47,759 nucleotides of DNA from Parcubacteria group bacterium GW2011_GWA1_56_13 (lineage in GTDB: Bacteria; Patescibacteriota; Minisyncoccia; Phycocordibacterales; Phycocordibacteraceae). Shown here piece by piece: positions 1 to 44,308 of this stretch. Location: positions 1-47,759 of the forward strand of contig LCRY01000004.1 of assembly GCA_001004905.1 (NCBI GenBank), written 5' to 3'. A program made the translations under genes and the position numbers. The notes below the pieces were generated by a model. That model worked only from the letters and a program-made list of their open reading frames with translations, was not told the DNA's origin and searched no databases. The first letter of the stretch is position 1; every line of letters starts with the position of its first letter.

Positions 1-1345
<1,345 letters not shown>

Positions 1346-7334: not shown

Positions 7335-7568
7335 TTGTTAATGATTTTTAGGAGCACATGATAATTAATGTTGCGCACACGCACGAAGCACTTTCAATTT
7401 CACACTACCCCACAGCGAACGGTATCGACCAGTGCGCCATGGGTTAGTTGGTAAGGGTTGATGTCCGCCCATGAAGCGGACTATTCGGTTATCAAAGTAC
7501 GCCCTTATGGATTCGCTCTCGCTCACCGCAGCGGGGGAACAAAAGAAGTCCCATAAGGACTGTCCCCT

Positions 7569-10832: not shown

Positions 10833-10838
10833 GTCGGA

Positions 10839-11162
10839 ATGGTACGGTATCTTATCGGCGCGATCCTCGTCCTACTTGCCGGTTACGGGAGCATAGAGGC
10901 ATGGCCTCTTCTGTGGGGCCCTGCGCTGTCCATCGCTTCTCCGGCCGATAACGCCTCGTTCCCGGACGGTATTGTGGAAGTGAGCGGACGAGCCGCCCGC
11001 TCTGCCCTCCTCACGCTCAATGGTGCCTCTCTCTTGCATGACCAGAGCGGGACCTTCTCATCAACACTGACGTTTCCCCGCGGAGGCTCTATACTTACCT
11101 TTGCGGCCACCGACCGCTTCGGCAGGACGGTAACTGCAACGCGTACCGTTTTCGTACCTTAA
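10839..11162 (+). CDS. Hypothetical membrane-anchored small protein
   Basis: 107 aa. An N-terminal TM helix ([16 protein letters not shown]) is followed by a beta-rich domain. The gene is tightly packed between ftsK and recA. Confidence 0.55.
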
Positions 11163-11173
11163 TCCACACAACC

Positions 11174-12223
11174 ATGGCATTTGGAAAACCAAAAAAAGAA
11201 AAAACGTTGAAGACGGTCACGGCCGCGATGGCGGATAAAAGCGAAAAACAGAAATCCATCGACCAAGCACTTCACGAGATCCGCACGAAATTCGGCGACG
11301 AGGCCATCACCACTTTCGGGGCGGGTGCGCCACAGAAAATTCCGGTCATCTCGACGGGCTCTATCGGGCTCGATGCGGCGCTCGGGGTGGGCGGCCTCCC
11401 TCGCGGGCGTATTATTGAAATATTCGGCCCCGAATCTTCCGGAAAGACGACGCTTGCGCTTCACGTCGTCGCTGAAGCGCAGAAGCAGGGCGGCATAGCA
11501 TCGTTCGTCGACGCCGAGCACGCTCTCGATCCCGAATACGCACGACGCATCGGCGTGAAGCTCCAGGAACTCCTTATCTCGCAGCCGGACACCGGCGAGC
11601 AGGCGCTTGATATCGTCGAGAGTCTGGTGCGGAGCGGCAATGTGGATATCATCGTCGTCGACTCGGTCGCGGCGCTCACGCCGAAAGACGAGATCGAAGG
11701 AGAAATGGGCCAGCAGCACGTTGGCAAGCAGGCGCGGCTCATGAGCCAGGCGCTCCGCAAACTTACCGCGATCGTGGCGCGCTCCAAGACCATCGTCATT
11801 TTCATTAACCAGATCCGCATGCAGATCGGCGTCATGTTCGGGAACCCGGAGACGACGCCGGGAGGCAAGGCGCTTAAATTCTATACTTCGGTCCGCCTGG
11901 ATATTCGGCGTATCGCGAGCATCAAAAAGGGAGAGGAGGTGGTGGGCGGCCGTGTGCGGGTGAAAGTAGTGAAGAATAAGGTCGCCGCGCCCTTCAAGAC
12001 CACTGAATTCGACCTCCTCTATAACGAAGGCATCAGCCGCGAAGGAGAACTTATCGCGCTTGGTGAGAAGTACGCGCTCATTACAAAATCGGGCGCATCG
12101 TATGCCTTCGGCAAGACCTCGCTCGGCCGCGGATACGATGCCGCACGCACCTTCCTGCATGACAGCAAGGACGTCTCGAAGGAGCTTCTCGCGGAGATAC
12201 GGGCGAAACTCGCCGAGAGCTAA
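11174..12223 (+). CDS. recA: Recombinase RecA
   Basis: 349 aa. It has Walker A (GPESSGKTT) and the conserved blocks [10 protein letters not shown] and [10 protein letters not shown]. Confidence 0.97.
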
Positions 12224-12564: not shown

Positions 12565-13135
12565 ACGCTCGTTTGAAGAGCTTCTTGGCGCGGTGGACGC
12601 GCGTTTTCACGGCGGGGATGGAGAGATCTTCCTTTTCCGCGATCTCTTCCTGGCTCTTTCCCTCGACGAACTGGAGCCGGAGGATGCGGGCGGCGGATTC
12701 CGGCAGCTTCGCGAGCGCAGTGATGACCTCGTTGCGTACCGAAAGGTCTTCGAGGAATTCCGCACTCGCGTCCGGCAATGACTCGTAGTGCTCCGGTTCG
12801 AGTTCCGCCCGCCGCCCGCTCTCCTTACGTCGCGCGACATACTTGGTGTACGCAACGCGGTTGAGGATGGTGTACGCCCAAGATGAGAAGGTTGCCCCTT
12901 CCTGGGCGTGATATCTATCCGCATACAGGTACATCTTCGTGAACGCGTCCTGCACGGCCTCCTCCGCGTCTTCGGGGCTTTTCAATATCGCGCGCGCCCT
13001 CCGCAGAAGAGCGGCTTCGTACCGGCGGACGAGGATCGCGAAAAGATCGGGCTCCTTCTGCGAGCGCGCGAGCACCTCGGCGTCCGTCAGCTGGCTTAGT
13101 TCGGCAGTTGAAAAACCCATTGCATCTGCTAGCAT
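12542..13135 (-). CDS. RNA polymerase sigma factor, ECF (group 4) type
   Basis: 197 aa. Region 2 reads EDAEEAVQDAFTKMY...FSSWAYTILNRVAY. The region 4 HTH reads RILRLQFVEGKSQEEIAEKEDLSIPAVKTRVHRAKK. Confidence 0.9.
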   Translation of the reverse strand: MLADAMGFSTAELSQLTDAEVLARSQKEPDLFAILVRRYEAALLRRARAILKSPEDAEEAVQDAFTKMYLYADRYHAQEGATFSSWAYTILNRVAYTKYVARRKESGRRAELEPEHYESLPDASAEFLEDLSVRNEVITALAKLPESAARILRLQFVEGKSQEEIAEKEDLSIPAVKTRVHRAKKLFKRAYDEQHYE

Positions 13136-13230
13136 ACCCCGTGAGATAGTAAGTTGCGAGTTTTACGAAACTCTAGATGAAGCATCTCGTTAGTTGTTAG
13201 CGCGCTCCCCGTGGCGTTATCTCACGGGGT
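13136..13230. promoter_or_regulatory. 13-bp perfect inverted repeat in the sigma/efp divergent intergenic region
   Basis: accccgtgagata (13136-13148) abuts the sigma start codon. tatctcacggggt (13218-13230) lies 69 nt away. The same arms occur upstream of rplJ (5013-5047). Confidence 0.6.
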
Positions 13231-13240
13231 ACTTTTTATA

Positions 13241-13265
13241 ACGACTTTTACCCTTCATTAGTTTC
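13241..13265 (-). promoter_or_regulatory. Candidate ECF-type promoter for the sigma gene (possible autoregulation)
   Basis: The minus strand reads TTGAAAC (-35; GAAAC at 13265-13261), a 17-nt spacer and CGTTAT (-10; CGT at 13243-13241). Confidence 0.3.
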
Positions 13266-13271
13266 AAAGCC

Positions 13272-13847
13272 ATGGCCGTACTCTCATACAACGAAATCCT
13301 CCAAAAAACTATCATTGACTACAACAATGAGCCCTACGAGGTGCTTTCCTCGCACATCTTCCGCATGCAGATGAGAAAGCCCGTGAACCAGACGAAGCTA
13401 CGCCACCTTGTTTCCGGCAAGGTCATCGAGATATCGTTCCACCAGAATGAGACGGTGACCGAGGCCGATGTGGAAACGATGCAGGCGCTCTATCTCTATA
13501 CCAACAAGGGCCAGAGCTGGTTCGCCGAGGAAGGAAACCTCAAAAACCGCTTCGCGTTCCCCGAGGAAGCGGTGCACGACAAGGTGCAGTGGCTCATGCC
13601 TAATTCGGTCGTTGACGTTCTCACCTACGAGGAGACGCCCATGACGATAAAGATACCGGTGAAAGTAGACCTTCCCGTAAAAGATGCCCCGCCGGCGGTC
13701 AAAGGCAATACGGTCTCGGGCGGCACGAAACTCGTGGAGCTTGCGACTGGTGCGACCGTTGACGTTCCTCTCTTCATCAACCCGGGCGACATTATCCGTA
13801 TCAACACCGATACCGGCCTTTATACCGAACGCGTCGAGAAAGCGTGA
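13272..13847 (+). CDS. efp: Elongation factor P
   Basis: 191 aa. It aligns without gaps to the E. coli EF-P N-terminus (NNEPYEVLSSHIF...TKLRHLVSG). The C-terminal OB domains end VDVPLFINPGDIIRINTDTGLYTERV. Confidence 0.9.
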   Translation: MAVLSYNEILQKTIIDYNNEPYEVLSSHIFRMQMRKPVNQTKLRHLVSGKVIEISFHQNETVTEADVETMQALYLYTNKGQSWFAEEGNLKNRFAFPEEAVHDKVQWLMPNSVVDVLTYEETPMTIKIPVKVDLPVKDAPPAVKGNTVSGGTKLVELATGATVDVPLFINPGDIIRINTDTGLYTERVEKA

Positions 13848-13955
13848 CGAAAAAAGTCGCCCTCGGACGGCTTTTTTCATTCTTCCGGCGCTCCGGTTAA
13901 GCGGGAACGTACGGCTCAAAACCTTTTTCGAGCGATTTTGCCCGATTGCTTCCTC

Positions 13956-14162
13956 TTAGGGAGAAACGTAGGGGAGGAGCGCCATGTAGCGGGCGCGCTT
14001 GATTGCCTGCATGATGTCGCGTTGCTTGTTCGCTGGAACGCCCGTGCGCTTCTTGGAGAGCATCTTCGCGTGCGGATTGGTGAACATCTTCAAGTATGCG
14101 ACATCCTTATAGTCGATGAATTTCTTGAGCTCTATTTCTTCGCGTTCAGCTTGGTACGCCAT
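13956..14162 (-). CDS. rpsR: 30S ribosomal protein S18
   Basis: 68 aa with IDYKDVAYLKMF...KRTGVPANKQRDIMQAIKRARYMALLPY. Confidence 0.93.
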   Translation of the reverse strand: MAYQAEREEIELKKFIDYKDVAYLKMFTNPHAKMLSKKRTGVPANKQRDIMQAIKRARYMALLPYVSP

Positions 14163-14173
14163 AATGGGAAATA

Positions 14174-14620
14174 TTAAAACGGAATGTCTTCCGGATTTAT
14201 CTCTTCATCCGGATATTTAATGACCTCGTCACCTTTCGGTGCGGGCTGCTCCTCATTCTTGGTCGTAGCTCCCGAGCCACGCGAGGGACCGCCGTCGGCG
14301 CCGAATTGGAAGTTGTCCACGACAATCTCTGTGCGGTAATTCTTCTTGCCGCTCTCTTTATCGTCCCAGCTTCTCGTCTGGATACGTCCCTCGACGAACA
14401 TGGGGCGTCCTTTCTTCATATATTGCGCTATCACTTCCGCGGTGCGACCGAACGAAACGATATTGTGGAATTCGGTCGCCTCCTGCTTCGCGCCGCTCTT
14501 ATCCTTATAGGTGCGGTTCGTTGCGAGGCCGAAATTCACCACCTGCCCCCCCGAAGGGAGCGCCTTCAGCTCCGGGTCGCGGGTGAGATTGCCGTATAGG
14601 AATACTTTGTTGAGGTACAT
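14174..14620 (-). CDS. ssb: Single-stranded DNA-binding protein
   Basis: OB fold (MYLNKVFLYGNLTRDPELKALPSGGQVVNFGLATNR...FHNIVSFGRTAE) with an acidic C-terminal tip DIPF. I chose the start at M19 (14620), 7 nt after the rpsF stop. Confidence 0.92.
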   Translation of the reverse strand: MYLNKVFLYGNLTRDPELKALPSGGQVVNFGLATNRTYKDKSGAKQEATEFHNIVSFGRTAEVIAQYMKKGRPMFVEGRIQTRSWDDKESGKKNYRTEIVVDNFQFGADGGPSRGSGATTKNEEQPAPKGDEVIKYPDEEINPEDIPF

Positions 14621-26417: not shown

Positions 26418-28010
26418 TCACATCTTTTCGGGCGCAGGGATACCGAGGATGGTGAGACCGTTCGACATCGTCTGCGCAAAGGCGCGCGCGACCAGCAGTT
26501 TATGTGCCTCATGGTCGCCGCCGATAATGCGTTCTGTGGCATAAAAAGCGTTCCATGCGCCAGCGAGCTCGGTGAGATAGCTCGTGAGCAGGTTTGGCGC
26601 GAACGTGCGAGCCGCACGAGCCGCGACCCCAGGAAAATGCAGGAGGAGCCGTTCCAGCAGGTACGGCGTCGCCGGAGCGCCGGCGGCCGAGGCATCGTTC
26701 TGTTCCTTTGCTTGTGCAAGAACCGAACGTGCGCGCACGAGCGCGTATTGCAGATACGGCCCGGAATCCCCCTCGAGCGACAACGATTTCGCCGCATCGA
26801 ACAAGATGTCCGAGCCTGGCGCTTGCCGCAGGATCATATATTTGATCGCGCCAACGGCGACCTGTTCGGCAATGAGCGGATCGGCATTTTTCTCGCTTGC
26901 TTGTGCGATAACCTCACGGATGAACTCGGCGGCTGTGATGATGTTCCCTTCCCGCGAAGACATTTTCCCCGAGGCGCGTTTCAAAAAGCCGGTTGCGAGA
27001 TGCGTAGTTTTCGCCGCGAGCAGGGGAGCTATATCCGCAAGCGCAGCAAGCACCGTCTTGAAGCGTCCCAGCTGTTCGTTGCCCGTCACAATAACGGACA
27101 CATCCGACGGCCATCGTTCCTCCTTAAGGAATGCGAGCCCAAGGTCCTTTGCTTCGTAGGTTGGCGTGCCGTGAGAGGTGATGAACACCATCGTATGCAC
27201 GCCTTTTTTCTCGCCGTTGTAGATAATCGCGCCGTCGCTCTTCTCGAATATTCCTTTCGCAAGCCCGTCGTTCACGACGCGCATGCCTGTTTCGGTCGTA
27301 TCGCTGTCAAAGAATTCGAAATCGAAGCGGGTGCCGAGAATGCGCCAGAGGCGCCGAAATTCCTGCATTGAAAGCTCGCGGCCTTTGCGCCAGAGCTCCA
27401 TAAGCGCCCGATCCGTCCCGGCATACATCGCTTGGTTGAGAGCGTCTATTTCTTCTTTCGCTTTCGGATCGCTTTCGCATGCGCGGGCGCCTTCAGCATA
27501 CGCGCTGCCTATTTCTTCCGCCGTTTCCGGTTCGGTTATACCCCTTGTACGGAGCGCCCAAAGTGCCTTCGCCACATTCGGTCCGATGTCGCCGCCGAAC
27601 GTGTCCCGAGCAATGGTGGCACCGGAGTTTTCTATGAGCCGCGCCACGGCTTCGCCGACCACCGTACCAACCAGATGTCCTATATGCATTTCCTTGAACG
27701 CATTCGGATTGGAATATTCGACGATGATGCGTTTCCCCGCATTTGCCGTTCCCTTCCCCCACCCGTCTCCTTGCGCGCTTGCCTTGACGACCGCAATGGT
27801 GACGACCTCGCGCGAAAGCGTGATGTTGACGAAGCCCTTGCCCGCTACCTCTACTTTCTTCGCCGAGGCGCCGAGCTCGTCGCGGATGTCCCGTACCGTC
27901 TTCTCTGCGGACTCGGGCCCGACAAAGACGGAAAAATCGCCGAACGCGGGATTTGGGGGGCGGCGGATAACCGCTTCTTTTCCGACGGCCCTCTGTATCC
28001 GTTCTTCCAT
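26418..28010 (-). CDS. argS: Arginyl-tRNA synthetase
   Basis: 530 aa. It has SNPNAFKEMHIGHL (HIGH) and a C-terminal DALR anticodon-binding domain ending in M. Confidence 0.94.
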   Translation of the reverse strand: MEERIQRAVGKEAVIRRPPNPAFGDFSVFVGPESAEKTVRDIRDELGASAKKVEVAGKGFVNITLSREVVTIAVVKASAQGDGWGKGTANAGKRIIVEYSNPNAFKEMHIGHLVGTVVGEAVARLIENSGATIARDTFGGDIGPNVAKALWALRTRGITEPETAEEIGSAYAEGARACESDPKAKEEIDALNQAMYAGTDRALMELWRKGRELSMQEFRRLWRILGTRFDFEFFDSDTTETGMRVVNDGLAKGIFEKSDGAIIYNGEKKGVHTMVFITSHGTPTYEAKDLGLAFLKEERWPSDVSVIVTGNEQLGRFKTVLAALADIAPLLAAKTTHLATGFLKRASGKMSSREGNIITAAEFIREVIAQASEKNADPLIAEQVAVGAIKYMILRQAPGSDILFDAAKSLSLEGDSGPYLQYALVRARSVLAQAKEQNDASAAGAPATPYLLERLLLHFPGVAARAARTFAPNLLTSYLTELAGAWNAFYATERIIGGDHEAHKLLVARAFAQTMSNGLTILGIPAPEKM

Positions 28011-28369
28011 GTCGTCCAGTATACGGCAAACACTAAGCCCCGCGACAATGCGCGGGGCGGTTTTGGTTTACGGACCGGCCCTCACCTTTCGGAGTGAGCC
28101 TCGGATATCACGCGAGAAGCGAGAAGGAGCGATTTACGGCTCTTCTCATACCTCTCATAACAGTCACGTGATGCCAGTGGACGGCCGTCGTCCGTTGACG
28201 CGTACGGCGTCCTCATCACGGCACGGCAGCCCACGGAGCATGCGCACCTTTGCGAATTCAGATTGTTTTCGTTGACACTCCCCCGATAAAAAGAACTTCA
28301 TTGGGAAACCGGCAGGGCCGGACGGTTGTGAGCTATCTCTGCACAACCTGGAATTCAGTATACCCAAAG

Positions 28370-29635
28370 CTACGGATGTATAAAAGAGTCGGGAATGGGG
28401 TGTGCGAGCGCGAGCCGTGTTATCTCTTCCTTTGCGGCGAGCGCGCTTGTGCGCTTCGTGAGCACATCGATCATGATTTGCGCTACCTGTGCCGATTCGA
28501 CCTCACCCATGCCACGCGTCGTCATGGCCGGCGTGCCGAAACGGATGCCGGACGGATCCATCGGTTTTCTCGTATCATCCGCGATGGCGTTTTTATTGAG
28601 CGTGATGCCCGCCTGGTCGAGCAGTAGTTCCGCTTCCCTTCCCGAGATACCAAATGACGTCCACACATCGAGCAAAATGAGATGGTTGTCGGAGCCGCCC
28701 GTTATCATGCGCACGCCGTGTTTTCTGAATACGTTCTCCATCGCTTTGGTGTTCGCAATGATCCGTTCCGCATATTTTTTAAAAGAGGGCCGGAGCGCTT
28801 CGGCGAACGAAACCGCTTTCGCGGCGATCTGGTGCATATGCGGGCCGCCCTGGAAACCAGGGAACACCGCCTTGTCTATTTTTTTCGCGATGTCCGCACT
28901 CTCGCGCGTGAGGACCATACCACCACGCGGCCCGCGAAGCGTTTTGTGCGTCGTGGTGGTCATGACGTCGAAGCCGTACTCAAACGGGTTCTTCGCGGCG
29001 TTGCCCGCGATAAGTCCTGCGATATGCGCGATATCCATGACAGAAACGGCGCCCGTTTCGCGCGCGATATCGGCGAATTTCGCGTAGTCCAGCTCGCGCG
29101 GATATGCCGAGAACCCGGCGAGAACTATCTTCGGCTTCACCTTTTTGGCGACACGCCGCATGTCGTCGTAGTCCAGCTCGCCCGTTTCGATATTTTTCAT
29201 CTTGTACCGCACGAAATTGAATATCTTGGTGAGGTACGTCACCGGATGGCCGTGCGTCAGGTGCCCGCCATGAGAGAGGTCCATGCCGAGAACCGTATCG
29301 CCGGGCTCCAAGAGCGCGAAATACGTGGCGATGTTCGCGTTCGCTCCCCCCAGCGGCTGCACGTTCGCGAACGCGGCGCCGAAAAGCTTTTTCGCCCGCT
29401 CAACGGCGAGCGATTCCACTGCATCCGTAAATTCCTGGCCGCCGTAGTAACGCTTGCCCGGATAGCCTTCCGAGTATTTATTCGTCAAAGACGACGCCAT
29501 CGCCTCCTTCACCGCACGCGACACGTAATTCTCGGACGGAATGAGCTCCAATCCTTCCGCTTGCCGCTTATCCTCTCCTACAAGCGCGCGAAAAATGTCG
29601 GGGTCCTCCTGTTCTATGAACGGATACTCGCTCAT
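28370..29635 (-). CDS. glyA: Serine hydroxymethyltransferase
   Basis: 421 aa with LELIPSENYVS, YSEGYPGKRYYGG and the PLP-lysine motif TTTTHKTLRGPRGG. Confidence 0.97.
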   Translation of the reverse strand: MSEYPFIEQEDPDIFRALVGEDKRQAEGLELIPSENYVSRAVKEAMASSLTNKYSEGYPGKRYYGGQEFTDAVESLAVERAKKLFGAAFANVQPLGGANANIATYFALLEPGDTVLGMDLSHGGHLTHGHPVTYLTKIFNFVRYKMKNIETGELDYDDMRRVAKKVKPKIVLAGFSAYPRELDYAKFADIARETGAVSVMDIAHIAGLIAGNAAKNPFEYGFDVMTTTTHKTLRGPRGGMVLTRESADIAKKIDKAVFPGFQGGPHMHQIAAKAVSFAEALRPSFKKYAERIIANTKAMENVFRKHGVRMITGGSDNHLILLDVWTSFGISGREAELLLDQAGITLNKNAIADDTRKPMDPSGIRFGTPAMTTRGMGEVESAQVAQIMIDVLTKRTSALAAKEEITRLALAHPIPDSFIHP

Positions 29636-30060
29636 ACTCCGGTTGAACCGAACCCCCCTCGGTCGGGTGTATCGAGCGCATCAACCTCCTCCCATTCGAC
29701 GCGGTCAAACGGCAGGATGAGCATCTGCACAATGCGGTCCCCACGCTTTATTTCCACCGGCGCGTCGGTGAAATTGTATAGGGCGGCATGATACTCGTCG
29801 CTATCACCCGAAAAATCCTCGTCGCCGATGCCGACGCCGTTTATCATCATCACACCGCGCTTATGGAGCGAACTACGGGCCGCAAGGAGTACGAAGTGCC
29901 CGCGCGGCGGTTTGAGCGCCGCATTGAGCGGTACGAGCGAGATTTCCTCTGGCCCGATGACGGTCGTGGTCCGCACGACGCAGTCCATGGCCGCCGCGCC
30001 TGGCGTTCTGTATGCGGGAAGCGGCAGGGCGGTATCAATGCTTTTTATGGGAACTTTCAT
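29632..30060 (-). CDS. dut: dUTP diphosphatase
   Basis: 142 aa with GAAAMD, ARSSL, GVGIGDEDFSGD and a C-terminal GGFGSTG motif. It overlaps the glyA start by 4 nt. Confidence 0.9.
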   Translation of the reverse strand: MKVPIKSIDTALPLPAYRTPGAAAMDCVVRTTTVIGPEEISLVPLNAALKPPRGHFVLLAARSSLHKRGVMMINGVGIGDEDFSGDSDEYHAALYNFTDAPVEIKRGDRIVQMLILPFDRVEWEEVDALDTPDRGGFGSTGV

Positions 30061-30152
30061 AGTGATGTTCAGTGTATCACTCGGCTGCTCGACCGCTTCA
30101 GATTGGGCGCCGGATGTGCGCAGCTCGTCAAGACGTGAGGATTCCTGCCGGT

Positions 30153-30163
30153 TGCTATATACT
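30153..30163 (+). promoter_or_regulatory. Candidate extended -10 (TGcTATATACT) for the 30175-35014 operon
   Basis: The sequence is gtTGcTATATACTctgaAGGAccaATG, located in the 114-nt divergent region shared with dut. Confidence 0.35.
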
Positions 30164-30174
30164 CTGAAGGACCA

Positions 30175-31074
30175 ATGGACGCTATAACCCTCACACGCGT
30201 GTACTCACTGAAGTCCATGGAGGATATGCTTCGGCACATCACGTTCCGCGGTGCGTACAATGTCCGCGGTTCACACGTCTTCCCCTACCAGCATGCCAAG
30301 TTCTCGCTCACAACGGTGTATCCGCAGTCGTCTCCGGGCACGTCGCCCGAAGTGAAGATCGGACGGCGTCGCGAACCTTTGTTTACTCCCCAGCCGACCA
30401 TCTACGAGAACCAGACGAAAATCCTCGAGGAGGTCGATGAGTTCCTACTTGGACATGACATGAAAATGAGCGAACTGAAGCACGCCGTAGAATATGCGTG
30501 GGAAGGACGGGGTGAATTCCATATCCTGCCCCCGGTGATAGAAAAACACACGTACCGGCTGAAAAACGGCTACCTCGACCTTGCGCATCTCTTGAAGCGT
30601 TTTAAAGGCGTCTACGTGAAGGACGCCATAGGAAAACTGCACCCGCTTTCGAGCCGAAATCTGCGCTCATTCTATATAGATGAGGTAAGCAAGATGGACC
30701 ACCTCGACATCTTCAATTCGAACGTGCCGATCATCAATTACGGGCTCGGCCATGACGGGGAGTTTACGTTCTATATCGTGTGCGACGGCGCGCACCGACT
30801 CGATTATGTCCTGGAAAAGATAAAGCGACCCATCACTGCGCTTTTGGTCGAGCCGGCCAAGAAAGGCAGTACGCTTTATCCGTATTACGCGTTCCCGGTC
30901 CCGTTCCGCCCCACGCTACGGCTTTCCAGCAAGAAATCCGAAAAAATGTATCACCGGCTGGAACGGGACAAGATCCATCTGCTGAATGATTTCATAAAAA
31001 AGACGCTGCACTATGATTGGGAGGCGGGCGGCCTCAAGGTGAGCAAATTGCGGACCAATGTGGAGATATTTTAA
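30175..31074 (+). CDS. Hypothetical protein with a ParB/sulfiredoxin-like (ParBc) signature
   Basis: 299 aa. FYIVCDGAHRLDYVLEKIKRPITALLVE matches the h-h-DG-x-HR-h-x-A ... I-x-A-x-V pattern of ParB N-terminal/Srx-fold proteins. No P-loop was seen. The stop overlaps the next start (TAATG). Confidence 0.7.
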   Translation: MDAITLTRVYSLKSMEDMLRHITFRGAYNVRGSHVFPYQHAKFSLTTVYPQSSPGTSPEVKIGRRREPLFTPQPTIYENQTKILEEVDEFLLGHDMKMSELKHAVEYAWEGRGEFHILPPVIEKHTYRLKNGYLDLAHLLKRFKGVYVKDAIGKLHPLSSRNLRSFYIDEVSKMDHLDIFNSNVPIINYGLGHDGEFTFYIVCDGAHRLDYVLEKIKRPITALLVEPAKKGSTLYPYYAFPVPFRPTLRLSSKKSEKMYHRLERDKIHLLNDFIKKTLHYDWEAGGLKVSKLRTNVEIF

Positions 31075-31973
31075 TGCATCCTATGGAAGCTTCCGCGCTT
31101 GATTCGGCCCTCCGGCATTCCATCGATCTTTCCCTGCCCGGCAAAAGAGCGGCCGAGAGCGGTTCGGTCGCCGTCTCGCAGACGGGCGCTCTGTATCCGG
31201 CCGGCTGCCTGGGCTCGGAAACGCACCTCCTCAACATCTCTTCGGAATTGGCCGCGCTGGTGCGTGCGGTGCATGCGGACGATGTCCACATCGAGCGGAT
31301 ACTGACGGTCGTGAGCGACGCGCGAACGCCCGTTTCGCCGCTTGTGCTCAAGATACTCGCCGACCACGGCACGCGAACCGGGACGCCTATCTCGTATACC
31401 GTATGCGACCTGCTGGGCACCGTTCTCTTCGAAGTCGCCGACGCGCGCGAAGCGCTTCCGTTCTACAAAGGACCGGGGATGGTGCTGAAAGCGTTCGCGG
31501 ACCGCGCGGTGCAGACCAGGCGGGTGGCATTGGATCGGACATCCGCCGTAAGCCCCGAGCTACAACTGCGCACGTGGGCGCTCGCGGGCTGCGACCGCAA
31601 TTTTCCAACACGCGACGGGGCTTCCGGATACGGTGCCGCGCTTTTAACCGCGTCCGGGAACATATATTATGGGGGTCAGTATTCTACATTTGAACACCGC
31701 CTCGGCGTTCATGCGGAGATGGGAGTACTTTTGAATGCTCTCATGGATGGCGCGAAGGATATTACGCACCTCGGCCTCGTCTCGACCAAATCTCCGGACA
31801 CGCCGTGTAGCCCGTGCGGCTGCTGCCGGCAGTTCGTCGGGGAACTGTCGCGCGCATTCGATTTTTCGCCGGCCATGTGTCTCTTCGCATCCGGGAACGA
31901 AACATACACATCACATACAATCGAAGAACTGCTTCCGATACAATGGACGAATAAAAATGACCACCGGCGCTAA
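31074..31973 (+). CDS. Cytidine/deoxycytidine-deaminase-fold protein with a tandem (pseudo-dimeric) architecture
   Basis: The C-terminal half carries the zinc motifs HAE (LGVHAEMG) and PCxxC (TPCSPCGCCRQFVGEL), plus a terminal EELLP, as in Cdd. The N-terminal half is a degenerate copy (ISSELAAL and VSPLVLKIL replace them). Confidence 0.8.
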   Translation: MHPMEASALDSALRHSIDLSLPGKRAAESGSVAVSQTGALYPAGCLGSETHLLNISSELAALVRAVHADDVHIERILTVVSDARTPVSPLVLKILADHGTRTGTPISYTVCDLLGTVLFEVADAREALPFYKGPGMVLKAFADRAVQTRRVALDRTSAVSPELQLRTWALAGCDRNFPTRDGASGYGAALLTASGNIYYGGQYSTFEHRLGVHAEMGVLLNALMDGAKDITHLGLVSTKSPDTPCSPCGCCRQFVGELSRAFDFSPAMCLFASGNETYTSHTIEELLPIQWTNKNDHRR

Positions 31974-34362
31974 ACCGCAATTCCCCATAGTCGACGCGCT
32001 CCTATTCATCCCGCCGGAAACGGCCAGTGGCCACATCGGCGTGTGCACGAACACCACGGCGCCTGGCCAGGTATTCAACGACATTGCCGAGGAGAACCGT
32101 TCCGCTATTTCGGTTCTCGGCCCGCTTATCGTGAGCCGTGACGGCACCGAGCGCATGATACTGAACTCGCTCGTGCATCCGACAATCACGTATCTCATAC
32201 TCTTTTCCGAGGAATCGCTCACCTTTTCTCCGAGCACGAATCTGCTTTTGGCACTCATGCACGGGCTTGATGCAAAGCGCGGAGGAAACTATATCGCGAA
32301 CGGACAGGCTGCCTCGGCCCATTTCCCGAATCTCTCAAGGGACATCGTAGACCTCTTTCGGGAGCACATCATCGTCCTGCCACTCTTCATGTCGCAGAAC
32401 AAAAACAGTGCCGCGGTCGTCAGCGAATACCTGGAATGGCTCGGGGATCGCGTCCCGCCGAATATCCTCTGGTTCCTCAAAGAGACGAACGCCAAGGGAA
32501 AGAAATATTACGATTCGCTGAACGCCCTCATCACACTTCTCAAGGCCGCTCCGCACCGGAAGAAAGTTCCTGTGGAGCTCGACCCCAAGGATTTCCAGCA
32601 CTTGCAACCGCCCAAAATAGCCATAGCGGAGGATACGACGCCATACCCAGTCCCGTTCCGCGTCTCGCTTGAGGACAACCTGCTGCGGCTCGATATCCGG
32701 GTCGGCGATTCGCTGTATTTCATCCGCGGGGATGACGACTTCCGTATCGAGTACTCTCTGATGAAATTCCTCGGTAAGCGCAAGGCGTTGCTCACGCCTC
32801 ACGAGCAGCTCCTGATCGGCGCAGAACTGAATCGCTTGAACGTGGAGCGTCGGGCCGGTCTTGCGGCACCGCCGTTTGCGGAGTCCAACGACGTCCAAGG
32901 CACCCAGGAGATACTGCTTGAACCCAAAGTTGCGCTCGTCCCGGACCAGCAGTATTACTATAAGATCGGATTGAAGGACGCGGAGGTATCGGTTATGTGC
33001 ATGGCGTTCGATATCTGCGAGGAAGTGTTCGACCTACGCTCGACAGGAGCCGGCGGCATATTCGCATGGCTGGCCGAAAAAAACCGTTTTCAGGCGTATG
33101 AGATGGACATGCTCCACCGCATGGACGTGGGAGGACAGATCGGCCGCGCCCTTATCGCCGGCCGCTTCGGCTACTCGTTCATCCAGGACTTTCCGAGTAT
33201 TTTCAAAATAAACCGCGAAACACTACCGCTCCTTATTGCCGAAAGCGACTCGTTCCTCGACGTGCACCGCGGCATGCTCCTCAAGACGTACACGCAAGGG
33301 CTCACCGAAGAGCATGGTGACGCTCGCAAGGGTCTTTCGCGCAGTGCGGTCACGCTCGCCATCTATCGCGATGCGGTGAACGCATTTGCGCGGATGCCTT
33401 CGATCTATAAGCAGGGCGACGTCTCGACGGAAGAAATGCGCAGTGCGTATAAAAAGCAGCTCCTCCGGCTCGACCACGACGGCGATTACAGCTACGGGCA
33501 GCGCACGCGCGTACATTTCGGATTCGACCAGCTTGAACGGACGGCGGACGTTCTCAGCAAAGACCCTTCGCGAGCGGCGATCATCCAGCGCTTCGATCCG
33601 ACGGTCGATATGGACTCAACGCTGAATCCCGACACGAAGCGGAGAGAATATACGCACGATCCCTGCCTCACGCACGACATTTTCTTCATTGCGGATGGCA
33701 CGCTGCATTCTTTTCATATCGCGCGCGCTCACAATTTACCGAATGCGTACCCCGAGAACCTGTTCGGCCTCTATGACGCATACGTTTCGAGCGTGCGGGG
33801 AAAGCTGTCGCTTGCCTCCGGCGATCTTTACATGCTCTCTTCCCGCGGCAACATCCTGCTCCTCTCCGAAGAACAGCGTGTCCGAAAGATCATCGCGGAA
33901 CCCTCGAAGCCCATGGGCGACGTGGAGCGCACGAGCGGCCCGACTCTTCTTGGCGCAAATGTCCGGAAGGAAGTTCCCTGCGTGGGCGTTTTGTATGCGA
34001 CGGAACTGCTCAAGGACGTGCCGCTCTACTCGCATCCAATTATCGACCGTTTCAGGAACTTCGAGGGTGTCGATATCCTCGAACGCGCCGTCTCGTATCT
34101 TGTGGAACGCGGCGGAAGCCACAATAACCCGGTCCTCACAACCTATCAGGCCGGGACTTCCGATCCGCAGGCGGACCACCTTGTGTTTTACCAGGCGAAC
34201 GTTTTTGGCGGAAAGGTCTACGCTACCGCCGTATTCGCGAACCATGAACCAAGCCCTGCCGATGACTTGAAACTCGCCTCGGCCGTCGCAACCGTATATG
34301 CGACTCGTCTCGAGAAGCCGCTCGCCGAGGCGAATATTTTCTACATCAATGGCGCCGTTTAA
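31957..34362 (+). CDS. Large fusion protein: MtrA-like N-terminal domain, two DUF4346-like modules, and a thymidylate-synthase/dCMP-hydroxymethylase-fold region
   Basis: I chose the ATG at 31957, which overlaps the deaminase gene by 17 nt. The TS-like block reads YSYGQRTRVHFGFDQLERTADVLSKDPSRAAIIQRFDP...THDPCLTHDIFFIADGTLHSFHIARAHNLPNAYPEN. It is colinear with ThyA YGxQWR / DQL / NPxSRR / PCH / RSxD / PFN. The N-terminal GPLIVSRDGTERMILNSLVHPTITYLILFSEES resembles the MtrA core G..TEN.GIEK...N....NIRFLILCG.E. The N-terminal family calls come from memory of the patterns. Confidence 0.75.
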   Translation: MTTGAKPQFPIVDALLFIPPETASGHIGVCTNTTAPGQVFNDIAEENRSAISVLGPLIVSRDGTERMILNSLVHPTITYLILFSEESLTFSPSTNLLLALMHGLDAKRGGNYIANGQAASAHFPNLSRDIVDLFREHIIVLPLFMSQNKNSAAVVSEYLEWLGDRVPPNILWFLKETNAKGKKYYDSLNALITLLKAAPHRKKVPVELDPKDFQHLQPPKIAIAEDTTPYPVPFRVSLEDNLLRLDIRVGDSLYFIRGDDDFRIEYSLMKFLGKRKALLTPHEQLLIGAELNRLNVERRAGLAAPPFAESNDVQGTQEILLEPKVALVPDQQYYYKIGLKDAEVSVMCMAFDICEEVFDLRSTGAGGIFAWLAEKNRFQAYEMDMLHRMDVGGQIGRALIAGRFGYSFIQDFPSIFKINRETLPLLIAESDSFLDVHRGMLLKTYTQGLTEEHGDARKGLSRSAVTLAIYRDAVNAFARMPSIYKQGDVSTEEMRSAYKKQLLRLDHDGDYSYGQRTRVHFGFDQLERTADVLSKDPSRAAIIQRFDPTVDMDSTLNPDTKRREYTHDPCLTHDIFFIADGTLHSFHIARAHNLPNAYPENLFGLYDAYVSSVRGKLSLASGDLYMLSSRGNILLLSEEQRVRKIIAEPSKPMGDVERTSGPTLLGANVRKEVPCVGVLYATELLKDVPLYSHPIIDRFRNFEGVDILERAVSYLVERGGSHNNPVLTTYQAGTSDPQADHLVFYQANVFGGKVYATAVFANHEPSPADDLKLASAVATVYATRLEKPLAEANIFYINGAV

Positions 34363-35014
34363 CGCACACGATATCAGGGTCGTCGGGTTTGACCTCGACC
34401 AGACGCTCTACCCAAAGTCGCCGCTGGTCGACGAGAAAATACAGGAATATCTGTACGAAAAGATCGCATCCCACAAAAAAATACCGCTCGACGAAGCAAA
34501 GCAGCTTTTTGGGGAGCGCTATCGGGATGGTGCGGGACTCTCGGGAAGTGAGACGCTCCGCGACCTTGGCGTCCCCAACGCAAGCGAAGCGGTGCAGGAG
34601 GCCCTTGAGCGCGCCGACATCGCCTCCATTCTCTCCCCCGATCCGGACACGAACCGCTTACTTGAGGACGTGCGTACGCATTATAAAAATCTCGACCTCA
34701 TTACCGGCTCGAATCTACGCGAGACCGAGAAGAAACTCTCTGCGCTCGGAATTCCGAAAGAAATGTTCTCGCACCTCATAACTGCCGAACAGGCGGCGAA
34801 ATCCACGGGCGAGAGCTACCGGATCTGGCTTTCTCTCTACCCGGAGTATGCACCGCGGCAGTTTCTCTACATCGGCGACCGCATCCGCAGCGATGGCGAA
34901 ATTCCTTCTGCCCTCGGCATACACACCGCACTCGTGTGCGCGCAAAAGCCGGGTACTTCGCTTCCTACGATGCAGCTGCACAACCTGGCCGAACTCGCTT
35001 CTATCCTTCTATAA
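34349..35014 (+). CDS. HAD-superfamily hydrolase, SDT1-like pyrimidine 5'-nucleotidase type
   Basis: Motif I is GFDLDQTLY (DxDxT, followed by the LY typical of the pyrimidine 5'-nucleotidase subfamily). Motif II is LDLITGSN. Motif IV is YIGDRIRSD. The ATG at 34349 overlaps the upstream stop by 14 nt. Confidence 0.8.
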   Translation: MAPFNAHDIRVVGFDLDQTLYPKSPLVDEKIQEYLYEKIASHKKIPLDEAKQLFGERYRDGAGLSGSETLRDLGVPNASEAVQEALERADIASILSPDPDTNRLLEDVRTHYKNLDLITGSNLRETEKKLSALGIPKEMFSHLITAEQAAKSTGESYRIWLSLYPEYAPRQFLYIGDRIRSDGEIPSALGIHTALVCAQKPGTSLPTMQLHNLAELASILL

Positions 35015-35111
35015 AAAGGGGCGTCTTATTTGACGTCAACCCACGCATAATTTTCTGCTGAAAATTTGCGCGGGCCCGCCTCGACCCGTCGGCCTCCGGC
35101 TCATCGACGTT

Positions 35112-35531
35112 TCACTTCACGTCGATGCCCATGCTCCGAGCGGTGCCCGCGATGAGGCGCGCGGCCGCCTCGGGAGAACTAGCATTCAGGTCGGGCATTT
35201 TTTCCTCGACGATGGCTGCGACCTGCGCTTTTGAAAGCGTACCCACTTTCTCCTCCTTCGCCTTGCCCGAACCCTTTTCAATGCCGAGTGCCTTCAGGAT
35301 GAGCCGAGAGGCGGGCGGGTTCTTCATGATAAACGTGAAAGAACGGTCATCGTAGACCGATATTTCTATCGGAATGATAGTTCCCTTCTTTTCCTTCGTG
35401 GCCTCGTTGAATTGGGTCACGAACTGGCCAATGTTCACGCCTGCGGGACCGAGCGCCGTACCGACCGGAGGCGCAGGCGTTGCCTGCCCGCCCGGGATCT
35501 GGAGTTTTATCTTTTTAACGACGGTGGCCAT
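35112..35531 (-). CDS. rplK: 50S ribosomal protein L11
   Basis: 139 aa with [34 protein letters not shown]. Confidence 0.96.
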
Positions 35532-35627
35532 ATAGGTAGAATCTATAGTAATAACTGCTTTGGGTCAATTTTGTGGCTTTGCCGCGCCGGAGCTCGGCAT
35601 ACGTGTGCACATTAGTTTGCAGACAAA

Positions 35628-36269
35628 CTAAAGTTTCCGTATTTGCAAAAAATCGAGCTCGACCGGCGTTTCGCGCCCGAACATCGAGACCATGACCTTC
35701 ACTTTGCCGCGGTCCTCGTCGATCTCGCCAACCTTGCCTTCCAGATCCTTGAAAGGACCATCGGCGATGACGACCTGGTCGTCCTTAACGAGGTCAATGT
35801 GGTGTTTCGGTGCCTCTGCCGTCATTCGCTTCATGAGGGACGCGACCTCGGATTCTTCCATCGGAACCGGAGTATTGCCGCTCCCGACAAAACCGGTGAC
35901 TCTGGGCGTGTTACGGACCACGAACCACGAATCGTCGTCTACGATCATGCGCACCAAGATATAGCCTGGGTATATTTTCTCCTCCTCGATGAGGCGCTTG
36001 CCGCCCTTTACGCGGATCTTCTTTTCGGTCGGAACGACGACGTCGAATATTTTGTTCTCCATACCGAGTGATTCGATACGTTGCTTCAGATTGCGCTCTA
36101 CGGCGTTTTCATATCCTGCGTAGGTGTGAATGGTGTACCAACGCGCATCCTCCTTGCGTGGCGCCGTTTCATCACGTACCTCCTTGCGTTCTGCGGGCGC
36201 GATATCCGCCATCCCGATCTCTTCGGGTAATTCCCTCTCGCCGCCGTGTGATGTCTGGGGGTCATCCAT
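35628..36269 (-). CDS. nusG: Transcription termination/antitermination factor NusG
   Basis: NGN domain (RWYTIHTYAGYENAVERNLKQRIE...) and KOW domain (VVIADGPFKDLEGKVGEIDEDRGKVKVMVSMFGRETPVEL). The start is uncertain, at either 36269 or 36212. Confidence 0.92.
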   Translation of the reverse strand: MDDPQTSHGGERELPEEIGMADIAPAERKEVRDETAPRKEDARWYTIHTYAGYENAVERNLKQRIESLGMENKIFDVVVPTEKKIRVKGGKRLIEEEKIYPGYILVRMIVDDDSWFVVRNTPRVTGFVGSGNTPVPMEESEVASLMKRMTAEAPKHHIDLVKDDQVVIADGPFKDLEGKVGEIDEDRGKVKVMVSMFGRETPVELDFLQIRKL

Positions 36270-36279
36270 AGGAAAAGGA

Positions 36280-36465
36280 CTACCCGCCAATGATACGGCC
36301 CACCACCAAACCGAAGAGATAATCAAAAAATCCGACAAGAAGCGCGATCGTTATCGCGATGCCGATGACCACGAGCGTGTGCGCGAGCGCCGTTCGATTG
36401 CTCGGCCATACGATGTGCGTGAACTCTTCTCGCACGTGCTTGAGATATGTGAAGGGTGAGGTCAT
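36280..36465 (-). CDS. secE: Preprotein translocase subunit SecE
   Basis: 61 aa. The sequence YLKHVREEFTHIVWPSNRTALAHTLVVIGIAITIALLVGFFDYLF has a single C-terminal TM helix. The gene sits in the canonical position upstream of nusG. Confidence 0.88.
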   Translation of the reverse strand: MTSPFTYLKHVREEFTHIVWPSNRTALAHTLVVIGIAITIALLVGFFDYLFGLVVGRIIGG

Positions 36466-36563
36466 GGCGACTATGTAGTTCGGTTAACCCAGTACTGCTT
36501 TTTTGTTTGCAGAAAAGTGGTACTGGGTGAATTAAAAAAGCCCTGCGGGCTTTCAACGTGGCT

Positions 36564-39373: not shown

Positions 39374-39447
39374 GGGCGGCTATCGGGAATTGAACCCGAA
39401 TTGAGAGCTCCACAAGCTCCAGTGTTGACCGTTACACCATAGCCGCC
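39374..39447 (-). tRNA. tRNA-His (anticodon GTG) with an encoded G-1
   Basis: The cloverleaf folds by hand. G-1 pairs with C73, and the acceptor stem is GCGGCTA/TAGCCGC. The anticodon arm is GGAGC-TTGTGGA-GCTCT. The T arm is TCGGG-TTCAATT-CCCGA. The 3' trailer is CAA, with no encoded CCA. Confidence 0.9.
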
Positions 39448-39501: not shown

Positions 39502-40035
39502 CTAATACCGCGGATTTTCTTCCGCGACGCCCTTGAGATGGTTCGCGAGTCGCGCGAGCGCGAAGAGAAGCGACGAAAGACGGTTGAGGTACGCCATGGT
39601 AAAAGACGACATATCGCGTAGGCGCCTTTCTTTGACCGCAATGACGCGGCGCTCCGCTCGGCGAGCGAGCGTGCGCGCGATATCGAGCAAAGCGGACAGT
39701 TCGGTCCCTCCCGCGACCGAAAATCCCTTCAAGGGCGGAATTTCTTTTTCAATACCGTTCACTAATGTCTCGATCCCTCGTACTGCCTGCTCGCTCACTT
39801 TCTTGTCCGCGCCCGCAACCTCCGCCTGGACGATAAAAAGCGTTTCCTGCACCTCGCGCAAAGCGCCTGCGATGCGCGGCTCTTCCGCAGCGCGCACCTT
39901 CGCGAATCCGAGGAAGGCGTTTAATTCGTCGAGTGAACCGAGCGCTTCCGGCAATTCCGACGACTTCGAAATGCGCCGCTGGTCGCAGCCGAACGCCGTT
40001 GTCATTCCCCCATCTCCTTTGCCGCTATAGAGCAT
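39502..40035 (-). CDS. PduO-type ATP:cob(I)alamin adenosyltransferase family protein
   Basis: 177 aa. The N-terminus reads GKGDGGMTTAFGCDQRRISKSSELPEALGSLDELNAFLG. The helical bundle contains LFIVQAEV and SFTMAYLNRLSSLLFALAR. Confidence 0.8.
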   Translation of the reverse strand: MLYSGKGDGGMTTAFGCDQRRISKSSELPEALGSLDELNAFLGFAKVRAAEEPRIAGALREVQETLFIVQAEVAGADKKVSEQAVRGIETLVNGIEKEIPPLKGFSVAGGTELSALLDIARTLARRAERRVIAVKERRLRDMSSFTMAYLNRLSSLLFALARLANHLKGVAEENPRY

Positions 40036-41671: not shown

Positions 41672-41717
41672 GAAAAAGTCGCATCTCGCAACGCGCGGGA
41701 TGCGACTTCATCTTTTG

Positions 41718-41801
41718 TGCGCAGGAGAGGACTCGAACCTCCAATCCCTTGCGGGAGCTACCACCTCAAGGTAGTGCGTCTACCAATTTCGCCACCTGCG
41801 C
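41718..41801 (-). tRNA. tRNA-Leu (anticodon GAG), long variable arm
   Basis: The acceptor stem is GCGCAGG/CCTGCGC. The anticodon arm is CTACC-TTGAGGT-GGTAG. The T loop is TTCGAGT. The 3' trailer is CAA. Confidence 0.92.
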
Positions 41802-43901: not shown

Positions 43902-43999
43902 GTCACGCATGATTCCTTGCTAGGAATCCGCGCGACCCCGCCTCGGACCGTCGTCCTGCGGCTTTCGAGTCCGAAAGAATGAATCGTTCCCTGCATATG

Positions 44000-44072
44000 T
44001 GCGCGGTGAGGGACTCGAACCCCCGACCTTTCCGGTGTAAACGGATTGCTCTACCAACTGAGCTAACCGCGC
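44000..44072 (-). tRNA. tRNA-Val (anticodon TAC)
   Basis: GCGCGGTTAGCTCAGTTGGTAGAGCAATCCGTTTACACCGGAAAGGTCGGGGGTTCGAGTCCCTCACCGCGCA folds as a standard 73-nt cloverleaf. The 3' trailer is CAT. Confidence 0.93.
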
Positions 44073-44113
44073 ATCCAAAGAACATTGTAGCGTCCAATGC
44101 TGAAAATTGCCTG

Positions 44114-44195
44114 TGCCGTGGGAGAGATTCGAACTCTCAACCCTTGCGGGATACGATTCTGAGTCGTACGCGTATACCAATTCCGCCACCACGGC
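44114..44195 (-). tRNA. tRNA-Leu (anticodon CAG), long variable arm
   Basis: The acceptor stem is GCCGTGG/CCACGGC. The anticodon arm is TACGA-CTCAGAA-TCGTA. The T arm is GAGAG-TTCGAAT-CTCTC. The 3' trailer is CAG. Confidence 0.92.
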
Positions 44196-44236
44196 GATGT
44201 CCGCTTCTTCTCGTCCGCCTGCCGGCGGACCAGCTG

Positions 44237-44308
44237 TGCCCCCAGCTGGAATCGAACCAACATCAACGGCTTAGAAGTCCGCTGCACGATCCATTGTGCT
44301 ATGGGGGC
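44237..44308 (-). tRNA. tRNA-Arg (anticodon TCT)
   Basis: The acceptor stem is GCCCCCA/TGGGGGC. The D arm is GCAC/GTGC. The anticodon loop is CTTCTAA. The T loop is TTCGATT. The 3' trailer is CAG. Confidence 0.88.

Follow-up and report, generated by a model that had tools for sequence, protein, structure and literature searches.

What could be the function of an operon that joins a thymidylate synthase (TS)-fold enzyme with a cytidine-deaminase-fold protein, a ParB/sulfiredoxin-like protein and a phosphatase? The four genes in question, here called g1 to g4, occupy positions 30175-35014 of a 47,759-nucleotide stretch of contig LCRY01000004.1 from Parcubacteria group bacterium GW2011_GWA1_56_13, and this entire stretch is referred to as the window. 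A first-pass annotation had read them as a non-canonical thymidylate or C5-modified-pyrimidine pathway, and this general reading stands, given the TS fold and catalytic residues of g3 and the co-conservation of the four genes. Our best explanation is that g1 to g4 form one translationally coupled operon for deoxypyrimidine conversion with thymidylate (dTMP) as product, a statement to which we assign, taken as a whole, a probability of roughly 45%. That its core reaction is a one-carbon transfer onto C5 of a uracil nucleotide we regard, taken by itself, as probable. The four genes are:

30175-31074, plus strand: g1, 299 aa, probable ParB-CE protein of the ParB/sulfiredoxin (Srx) superfamily
31074-31973, plus strand: g2, 299 aa, tandem cytidine-deaminase-fold protein with a degenerate N-terminal half and a zinc-dependent catalytic C-terminal half (residues ~186-295)
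31957-34362, plus strand: g3, 801 aa, multidomain TS-fold protein
34349-35014, plus strand: g4, 221 aa, HAD phosphatase, nearest to pyrimidine 5'-nucleotidases

They are chained by overlaps of 1 nt (TAATG, 31072-31076), 17 nt (31957-31973) and 14 nt (34349-34362), so that the earlier description of four linked plus-strand open reading frames (ORFs) proved correct to the base.

The case for the core reaction is carried by g3. Its AlphaFold2 model was built on 42 homologues (predicted local distance difference test, pLDDT, 84.6; predicted template modelling score, pTM, 0.75) and gave, if compared against the PDB with Foldseek, 401 matches at E<1e-3. The best 50 of these 401 are all TS-fold enzymes, aligned over ~225-298 columns with E~1e-8 and a target TM of 0.6-0.68, and they include ThyA of E. 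coli, human and viral origin, the CMP hydroxymethylase MilA and the phage dCMP hydroxylase AfhB. Alignment with hhalign placed Y513, C570, R590, N593 and N601 of g3 opposite Tyr94, Cys146, Arg166, Asp169 and Asn177 of E. coli ThyA, and all five residues are invariant in an alignment of 42 family members. Furthermore, the YG-R, DQL, PC (nucleophile), R166 and N177 motifs are colinear between both proteins. Thus the TS/dCMP hydroxymethylase motifs proposed for the third gene were recovered, and the TS fold is present together with the Cys, Arg, Asn and Tyr residues. An Asn at ThyA position 177 is the uracil-specific state, while cytosine-specific hydroxymethylases carry Asp. Since the equivalent residue of g3, N601, is Asn and not Asp, a uracil substrate is predicted. 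Judged by its fold and residues, g3 has a TS-fold catalytic centre that appears specific for a uracil nucleotide.

Other parts of the ThyA active site are less easily traced. The segment with Trp80 and Trp83 is absent from the g3 alignment, and H207 and Y209, which contact the 3'-OH in ThyA, have no recognisable counterparts. Amongst curated families, g3 comes closest to the methanogen-type TS (TIGR03283; E=2.5e-13, 50 bits against a cutoff of 174.55). The Pfam family PF00303 gave no match to the window g3 at E<=1 and weak matches in 6 of 42 relatives. Besides its catalytic domain, g3 contains two further domains:

32035-32556, plus strand: N-terminal MtrA-like Rossmann domain (residues ~27-200), without cobalamin ligands
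33229-33906, plus strand: catalytic TS-like domain (residues ~425-650) with Y513, C570 (nucleophile), R590, N593 and N601
34045-34344, plus strand: C-terminal degenerate TS-like repeat (residues ~697-796), in which 'DPQ' replaces 'DPC'

The likeness of residues ~35-150 to MtrA is weak but reproducible: NF002126 matches at E=3e-5, a profile comparison finds MtrA in the PDB at E~1e-3, and the Pfam MtrA family matches 31 of the 42 family members. In MtrA itself, His84 is the lower axial cobalt ligand, Glu54 its partner, and a GAIPF(Y/F)xEN motif is found (PMC4915002). In HMMER alignments with g3, His84 corresponds to F90, which is invariant, Glu54 to S60, and the motif to 'AASAH(F/Y)PN'. MtrA-style cobalamin binding by g3 is unlikely because the His84 and Glu54 ligands are replaced, and we rejected a cobalamin-dependent reaction via this domain on the same grounds. 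The TS domain and the C-terminal domain are colinear over 94 columns, a weak similarity (hhalign E=1.2e-3, probability 19%). One might speculate that this repeat takes the place of the second subunit in the TS dimer, which is obligate, and serves as a pseudo-dimer partner within the same chain. The resulting architecture of MtrA-like domain, insert, TS domain and pseudo-TS domain has not been described previously.

The second gene would provide the substrate. Both halves of g2 are homologous (hhalign probability 93%, E=3e-7), which points to an internal duplication, and only the C-terminal half keeps the zinc ligands and the catalytic Glu in the form (H/C)AE...PCxxC. Across 32 orthologues H213, E215, C248 and C251 are invariant, as is Q253 (32/32), while R252 is found in 30/32. 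The invariant zinc and proton-shuttle residues suggest that g2 is an active zinc deaminase. The C-terminal half matches cytidine deaminases in the PDB at E=3.5e-10 and the tetrameric cytidine deaminase family TIGR01354 at E=9e-13, but with 48.5 bits it falls below the cutoff of 113.65. Consequently, the tandem fold and the HAE and PCxxC residues of the earlier cytidine deaminase assignment hold, the formal family membership does not. A near-invariant 'GQYS' is found in g2 where nucleoside-specific cytidine deaminases have 'N-x-E', which we take, from B. subtilis cytidine deaminase, to be ribose contacts. The substrate may be either a cytosine nucleoside or a cytosine nucleotide.

The fourth gene encodes a predicted HAD phosphatase closest to pyrimidine 5'-nucleotidases. 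HAD motif I, 'FDLDQTLY' (DxDxT), is conserved, and both Pfam matches are above threshold (HAD_2, 33.8 bits against 23.8; Hydrolase, 31 against 26.4). The best NCBIfam match is the pyrimidine 5'-nucleotidase family TIGR01993 (E=3.6e-11), yet its 43.2 bits miss the cutoff of 142.9. Thus, of the SDT1-type nucleotidase suggested before, the HAD assignment is secure and the subfamily remains the nearest one.

The most unusual partner is g1. It matches the Pfam family ParB-CE (PF24392) with E=1.7e-4 and 22 bits, just short of the cutoff of 23, and the same match is precomputed for about half of the listed orthologues, which are 54-88% identical. A g1 profile search finds canonical ParB-CE proteins of ~210-270 aa at E=1e-5 to 1e-15. 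The ParB/Srx-like character that had been read from the CDGAHR motif is compatible with these matches, and the motif C203-D-G-x-H207-R208 is invariant. The AlphaFold2 model of g1 (pLDDT 86.8, pTM 0.87) found no match at E<0.1 in the PDB or BFVD with Foldseek, including no global ParB-N or sulfiredoxin fold, and a g1 profile gave chance-level matches only against PDB sequences. Local structural matches of 27-37 residues around CDGAHR are to sulfiredoxin, ParB-N and PadC. ParB/Srx proteins bind nucleoside triphosphates (NTPs), and some, such as sulfiredoxin and SerK, transfer phosphate. We presume g1 to be the NTP-binding partner of the TS-like enzyme. Two g1 orthologues, P0242 (622 aa) and P0245 (582 aa), possess an extra N-terminal domain of ~300 residues for which no Pfam or PDB match was found; an 'H-D-W-G' segment in it might represent an HD-type phosphohydrolase signature.

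To what extent do the four genes belong together? In a scan with each GTDB species represented by a single genome, 52 g3-type loci were found, and g3 homologues numbered 138 in total, the full-length ones listed being 49-84% identical over almost their full length. They derive from Parcubacteria/Paceibacterota and from metagenome-assembled genomes (MAGs) labelled Kaiser-, Zambryski-, Sung-, Saccharimonadales and Gracilibacteria. Amongst DPANN archaea, carriers at 40-44% identity are Woesearchaeota, Nanoarchaeia, Iainarchaeum and Nanoarchaeota. The taxon labels of several MAGs are unreliable, for example 'Gammaproteobacteria' or 'Methanosarcinales' on L042, L047 and L050. Based on tblastn, the order g1-g2-g3-g4 is kept in about 46 of 47 informative loci, DPANN included, so that the same arrangement recurs in dozens of independent genomes. 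Two exceptions were observed: L059 lacks g1 and g2 within 8.5 kb upstream, and in L022 a different, convergent HAD gene replaces g4.

Similar results were obtained by unbiased clustering of all neighbouring ORFs at 55 loci. Clusters corresponding to the operon occurred at 54 (g3), 48 (g2), 48 (g4) and 46 (g1) loci, with g4 conserved downstream of g3 in 48/55. The other clusters were NusG (29), L11 (27), ArgS (23), Dut (19) and serine hydroxymethyltransferase (SHMT, 15). Dut and SHMT, within 10 kb of the operon at 19/55 and 15/55 loci, are neighbours and not part of the core. FolD is also found amongst the neighbours, and Ndk and dCTP deaminase are found in DPANN loci. Compared to the window copy, mean identity is 57% for g3 and 61% for the adjacent ribosomal protein L11, and the two values are correlated (r=0.68; 26 loci with both genes). 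Because the divergence of g3 and L11 track each other, the operon looks vertically inherited within the candidate phyla radiation (CPR), under selection comparable to that of a ribosomal protein.

At the window locus, the operon is transcribed divergently from two of these neighbours:

28370-29635, minus strand: glyA, serine hydroxymethyltransferase (NCBIfam NF000586, E=1e-162, above cutoff)
29632-30060, minus strand: dut, dUTP diphosphatase (NCBIfam dut, E~1e-24, below cutoff; Pfam dUTPase recorded on an identical gene)
30061-30174, no strand: intergenic region of 114 nt between the divergent dut and g1 (sequence read)

The divergence of dut-glyA from g1 across 114 nt is thus as first described. 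A control region shared with dut and glyA exists at this locus, but it is not a general feature, as the counts for both neighbours demonstrate. No promoter-like match was found in the 114-nt region, promoter- and terminator-like sites within 29500-35700 were not more frequent than in shuffled sequence, and Rfam gave no match at E<=1 within 28000-36500.

Several individual loci deserve mention. On L001, a 960-kb Patescibacteria contig, transposase genes at 11134-11943 and 13347-14390 (minus strand; IS1595-type DDE and rve integrase) were inserted between g4 and the L11-NusG-SecE cluster, and the operon is intact. A protein of ~196 aa (median) without Pfam match, seen at 13097-13837 (plus strand) of L028, recurs near the operon in 15/55 loci. 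In L051 (Iainarchaeum), a 207-aa protein comprising a 4Fe-4S ferredoxin part and a PterinBD-DUF4346 part is encoded at 6771-7394 (plus strand), ~850 bp upstream of g1, and a nucleoside diphosphate kinase gene lies directly downstream of g4.

The partnership between g1 and g3 extends beyond the CPR and DPANN. Canonical ParB-CE proteins are carried by MAGs labelled Acidobacteriota, Gammaproteobacteria, Firmicutes and Vulcanimicrobiota, and all six genomic contexts examined (6/6) showed a TS-like or MtrA-like neighbour beside the ParB-CE gene:

L062: TS-like/MtrA-like gene, followed by HAD and by ParB-CE fused to a dCMP deaminase of the ComEB type (P0269)
L063: ParB-CE, followed by an MtrA-like gene that is truncated where the contig ends
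L064 (7.6-Mb contig): ParB-CE, followed by a protein of 486 aa that comprises an MtrA-like N-domain, a TS domain and a C-terminal PterinBD-DUF4346
L065 (Gammaproteobacteria MAG): TS-DUF4346, HAD, ParB-CE
L066: ParB-CE, then a 479-aa protein of the L064 architecture
L067: dCMP deaminase, 329-aa TS-like protein, ParB-CE, HAD; divergent from NrdR-NrdD-glutaredoxin-NrdG

The TS-like proteins of these sister modules comprise an MtrA-like N-domain and a C-terminal DUF4346 domain, keep the Cys, Arg, Asn and Tyr residues, and match TIGR03283 at E=1e-23 to 1e-30. The HAD counterpart of g4 in L067 reaches 64 bits against TIGR01993. Judged from these arrangements, the tightest partnership appears to be that of ParB-CE with the TS-like enzyme, next comes the HAD protein, and last a pyrimidine deaminase, which may be of either structural type. 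The window operon is the expanded CPR/DPANN version of this wider module. Neither the module nor the MtrA-like N-domain, the degenerate second TS-like repeat and the DPANN homologues had been recognised in the first-pass annotation.

We also considered a chain from nucleotidase via nucleoside deaminase to kinase as the reason for the presence of g4 and g1. Such a chain is unlikely because the HAD and ParB-CE proteins persist alongside a ComEB-type deaminase acting at the nucleotide level, and because ParB-CE (together with HAD in L065) persists without any deaminase.

Two sister loci hold further genes of potential interest. Directly downstream of the L067 module, at 9918-11932 (minus strand), lie another HAD gene and a gene for the large subunit of RuBisCO (Pfam RuBisCO_large), the latter possibly of the form III nucleotide-salvage type; the Nrd genes lie directly upstream of the module, and the genome has 26% GC. 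In L065, an NADPH-dependent FMN reductase gene at 3147-3698 (plus strand) follows the TS-DUF4346/HAD/ParB-CE set, which is noteworthy because the top structural match of g3 is a flavin-dependent TS-fold dCMP hydroxylase.

How might the operon work? We propose that g3 is a TS-fold enzyme of the short 'methanogen-type' branch, in which Cys570 would attack C6 of a uracil nucleotide and Asn601 would pick uracil over cytosine, while the one-carbon unit would be taken from 5,10-methylene-tetrahydrofolate and added at C5. The uracil compound would be made by g2 from a cytosine (deoxy)nucleoside or nucleotide, and dUTPase and SHMT would supply deoxyuridylate (dUMP) and the one-carbon unit. The product would most likely be dTMP. 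The remaining two proteins, g4 and g1, might act as a pair for dephosphorylation and NTP-dependent (re)phosphorylation, or as a regulatory pair, on the substrate or product pool. We prefer dTMP because the curated family closest to g3 comprises true TS enzymes, because the neighbours include dut, glyA, folD, ribonucleotide reductase (RNR) and ndk, and because conservation is housekeeping-like in minimal genomes. The deoxynucleotide context is supported by the sister module of L067, in which dCMP deaminase, TS-like enzyme, ParB-CE and HAD stand beside NrdR-NrdD-NrdG, and by the Rosetta-stone protein P0269, in which ParB-CE is fused to a ComEB-type dCMP deaminase.

However, a number of observations weigh against dTMP as product. 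Two residues of the ThyA folate site are altered in g3, namely D169 to N593 and F176 to E600, and both replacements are invariant. The curated equivalog cutoffs are missed by every one of the four proteins. Some phage relatives of the TS-like domain are annotated as dUMP (deoxyuridylate) hydroxymethyltransferases. The module occurs in large-genome bacteria, in one case on a 7.6-Mb contig, and these bacteria can be presumed to have a canonical TS. The family is small: ~140 clusters were counted for g3 and ~205 for g1 at 90% identity, and at 50% identity 1.84 billion representatives yielded ~6 clusters of full-length g1; consequently, the operon is not a universal CPR trait. Finally, for the mere synthesis of dTMP no dedicated nucleotidase is required, nor is a ParB-like protein. 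The neighbourhood data cover the window of the source genome and 10 kb on either side of the other loci, and no ThyA, ThyX or FolA was found in the window or within this distance of about 60 loci, which is a point in favour of dTMP. The further suggestion that the operon is the only thymidylate route of the organism is weakened by the large-genome carriers and by the small, patchy family.

The main rival is that the product is not dTMP but 5-hydroxymethyl-dUMP or another C5-modified uracil nucleotide, as in phages of the SPO1 type whose DNA contains 5-hydroxymethyluracil (hmU). Under this scheme, deaminase and dUTPase would raise the dUMP level, the TS-like enzyme would hydroxymethylate dUMP, the HAD protein would remove competing dTMP, and ParB-CE would phosphorylate the modified nucleotide or its hydroxymethyl group, with the base ending up in DNA or in a nucleoside metabolite. 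The classical set of SPO1-type phages includes a dCMP deaminase, a dUTPase, a TS-like C5 transferase, a pyrimidine nucleotidase and a dedicated kinase. The scheme has the appeal that, by this analogy, all four proteins and dut would receive a role. It also fits that the best phage matches to the TS domain of g3 (24-26% identity) come from phiRSL1 and from Pseudomonas Ab18/ZC01-type genes, the hydroxymethyltransferase annotation being found amongst these, that the C5 hydroxylase and hydroxymethylase members AfhB and MilA are among the top structural matches, and that the altered folate site and the large genomes, which should already own a TS, would both be accounted for. Yet methylases cannot be told from hydroxymethylases by Foldseek or sequence scores, and sequence and fold cannot distinguish dTMP from 5-hydroxymethyl-dUMP as product, while the nearest curated family consists of true TS enzymes. 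The neighbourhoods contain no glycosyl-, amino- or other group-transferases of hypermodification, no phage match was found for g1, no IMG/VR contig carries g1 or g3, and we know of no cellular prokaryote that makes hmU at the nucleotide level. Altogether, we consider a C5-modified product rather unlikely. Its boldest form, drawn from the phage analogy, holds that carriers put 5-hydroxymethyl-dUMP or another C5-modified dUMP into their own DNA, where it would partly or wholly replace thymine, with ParB-CE as a new kinase or phosphotransferase family and HAD as a dTMP-excluding nucleotidase; this we regard as improbable.

The product may also never enter DNA. Nucleoside antibiotics, mildiomycin and bacimethrin for example, are produced by TS-like enzymes in combination with phosphatases or glycosidases. 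The operon might make or recycle a 5-substituted pyrimidine in free form, as nucleoside or base, or else a compound linked to a pterin, with the TS-like and MtrA/DUF4346-like domains handling a pterin cofactor and the HAD protein releasing the dephosphorylated product. MilA is among the structural matches of g3, elsewhere MtrA/DUF4346-like domains are joined to pterin-binding proteins (TIGR00284 matches), the ferredoxin-PterinBD-DUF4346 gene adjoins the operon in L051, and in large-genome bacteria the module occurs without deaminase among sensor kinases. However, secondary metabolism is rarely retained in genomes reduced to the extent seen in CPR and DPANN, conservation is about that of ribosomal protein L11, the neighbours are enzymes of deoxynucleotide metabolism (dut, RNR, ndk, dcd), and glycosidase or tailoring genes are not present, which leaves this explanation a slim chance. 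Still less credit is due to a conflict or defence module that manipulates nucleotide pools and spreads horizontally between CPR and DPANN. Its distribution is patchy and crosses domains, the deaminase part of P0269 partly matches an anti-phage dCTP deaminase model, and DndB and GmrSD-type systems contain ParB/Srx-like DGxHR domains; but PADLOC gave no match for any of the four proteins, the parallel divergence of g3 and L11 fits vertical inheritance, and there are no nuclease, toxin or sensor genes and no mobile-element signature, since the insertion sequences of L001 are downstream insertions. A fortuitous cluster of unrelated salvage genes, which might be suspected as each protein by itself is a member of a widespread superfamily, is effectively refuted: the genes are joined by start/stop overlaps, their order recurs across two domains of life, and the functional set was re-created independently with different deaminase types and one gene fusion.

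Elsewhere in the window, the 5' part of a 23S rRNA gene (1-1342, minus strand) runs off the window start. Its 1342 nt correspond to model positions 1-1155, and the ~190 extra nt may represent an rRNA insertion of the kind known from CPR bacteria. A tRNA-His gene (39374-39446) adjoins a PduO-type cob(I)alamin adenosyltransferase gene (~39502-40005, minus strand; Pfam Cob_adeno_trans, on an identical contig), which hints at the use of adenosylcobalamin, for example by a class II RNR; the MtrA-like domain of g3 itself lacks cobalamin ligands. A tRNA-Leu(GAG) gene stands alone at 41717-41801 (minus strand), and tRNA-Val(TAC), tRNA-Leu(CAG) and tRNA-Arg(TCT) genes are clustered at 43999-44308 (minus strand).

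The ultra-small bacteria of the CPR and the ultra-small archaea of the DPANN are believed to depend on nucleotide salvage, and the balancing of their deoxynucleotide pools is poorly known. Against this background, the module is conserved in its carriers as strongly as a ribosomal protein and is common to two domains of life, and it has no characterised member. If dTMP synthesis is its role, as we prefer, and it constitutes the thymidylate route of its carriers, then 'thyA' counts in metabolic reconstructions rest on an 801-residue enzyme with two unexplained obligatory partners; in some databases the g3 family is labelled merely 'thymidylate synthase' or 'hypothetical'. If instead a modified base is made, this would be the first cellular nucleotide-level pathway of such a kind, and C5-modified dUMP in DNA would, if true, mean that cells encode their own equivalent of what phage SPO1 does. 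Either way, ParB-CE (PF24392) and the MtrA-like/DUF4346 domains gain a biochemical context as partners of a TS-fold enzyme. The novelty would be greater still if ParB-CE carried new chemistry or if the product were a modified base.

Each of the four proteins belongs to a known superfamily, while the module represents a TS-family pyrimidine C5 pathway in undescribed form. Literature searches revealed no paper on the g1 or g3 family or on the module, in line with the first impression that no characterised system has this gene combination. The closest relatives of g3 are the methanogen-type TS enzymes (TIGR03283), short ThyA-like proteins such as MJ0757, which share with it a short core without the 'small domain' region of ThyA and keep the same Cys, Arg, Asn and Tyr residues. 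In contrast to them, g3 is 801 aa long, possesses an MtrA-like N-domain, an insert of ~250 residues and a second TS-like repeat that is degenerate, and is paired with ParB-CE, HAD and deaminase proteins. Moreover, g3 is found in bacteria with folate enzymes adjoining and not in methanogens, which use tetrahydromethanopterin (H4MPT). Compared to the superfamily of ThyA, dCMP- and dUMP-hydroxymethylases and MilA (PF00303), g3 has the same fold but is multidomain, with a possible pseudo-dimer within one chain. MtrA, the cobalamin subunit of the methyl-H4MPT:coenzyme M methyltransferase, shows weak homology to g3, which lacks its membrane anchor. The ParB/Srx superfamily, with the CTPase domain of ParB (its N-domain), sulfiredoxin, DndB ('DGQHR') and archaeal SerK, shares the 'CDGxHR' motif with g1. 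However, the catalytic Cys position of sulfiredoxin is Ala206 in g1, whose invariant Cys203 lies three residues upstream, a DNA-binding helix-turn-helix domain is absent, and the genomic partner is a TS-like enzyme and not ParA, peroxiredoxin or Dnd proteins. Finally, the hmU phages (SPO1) and the thymidine-hypermodifying phages (M6/Ab18, phiRSL1) have a list of activities similar to the one predicted for the operon. The operon differs from them in being cellular and in lacking genes for hypermodification at the DNA level, and a kinase role for its ParB-CE protein is conjecture.

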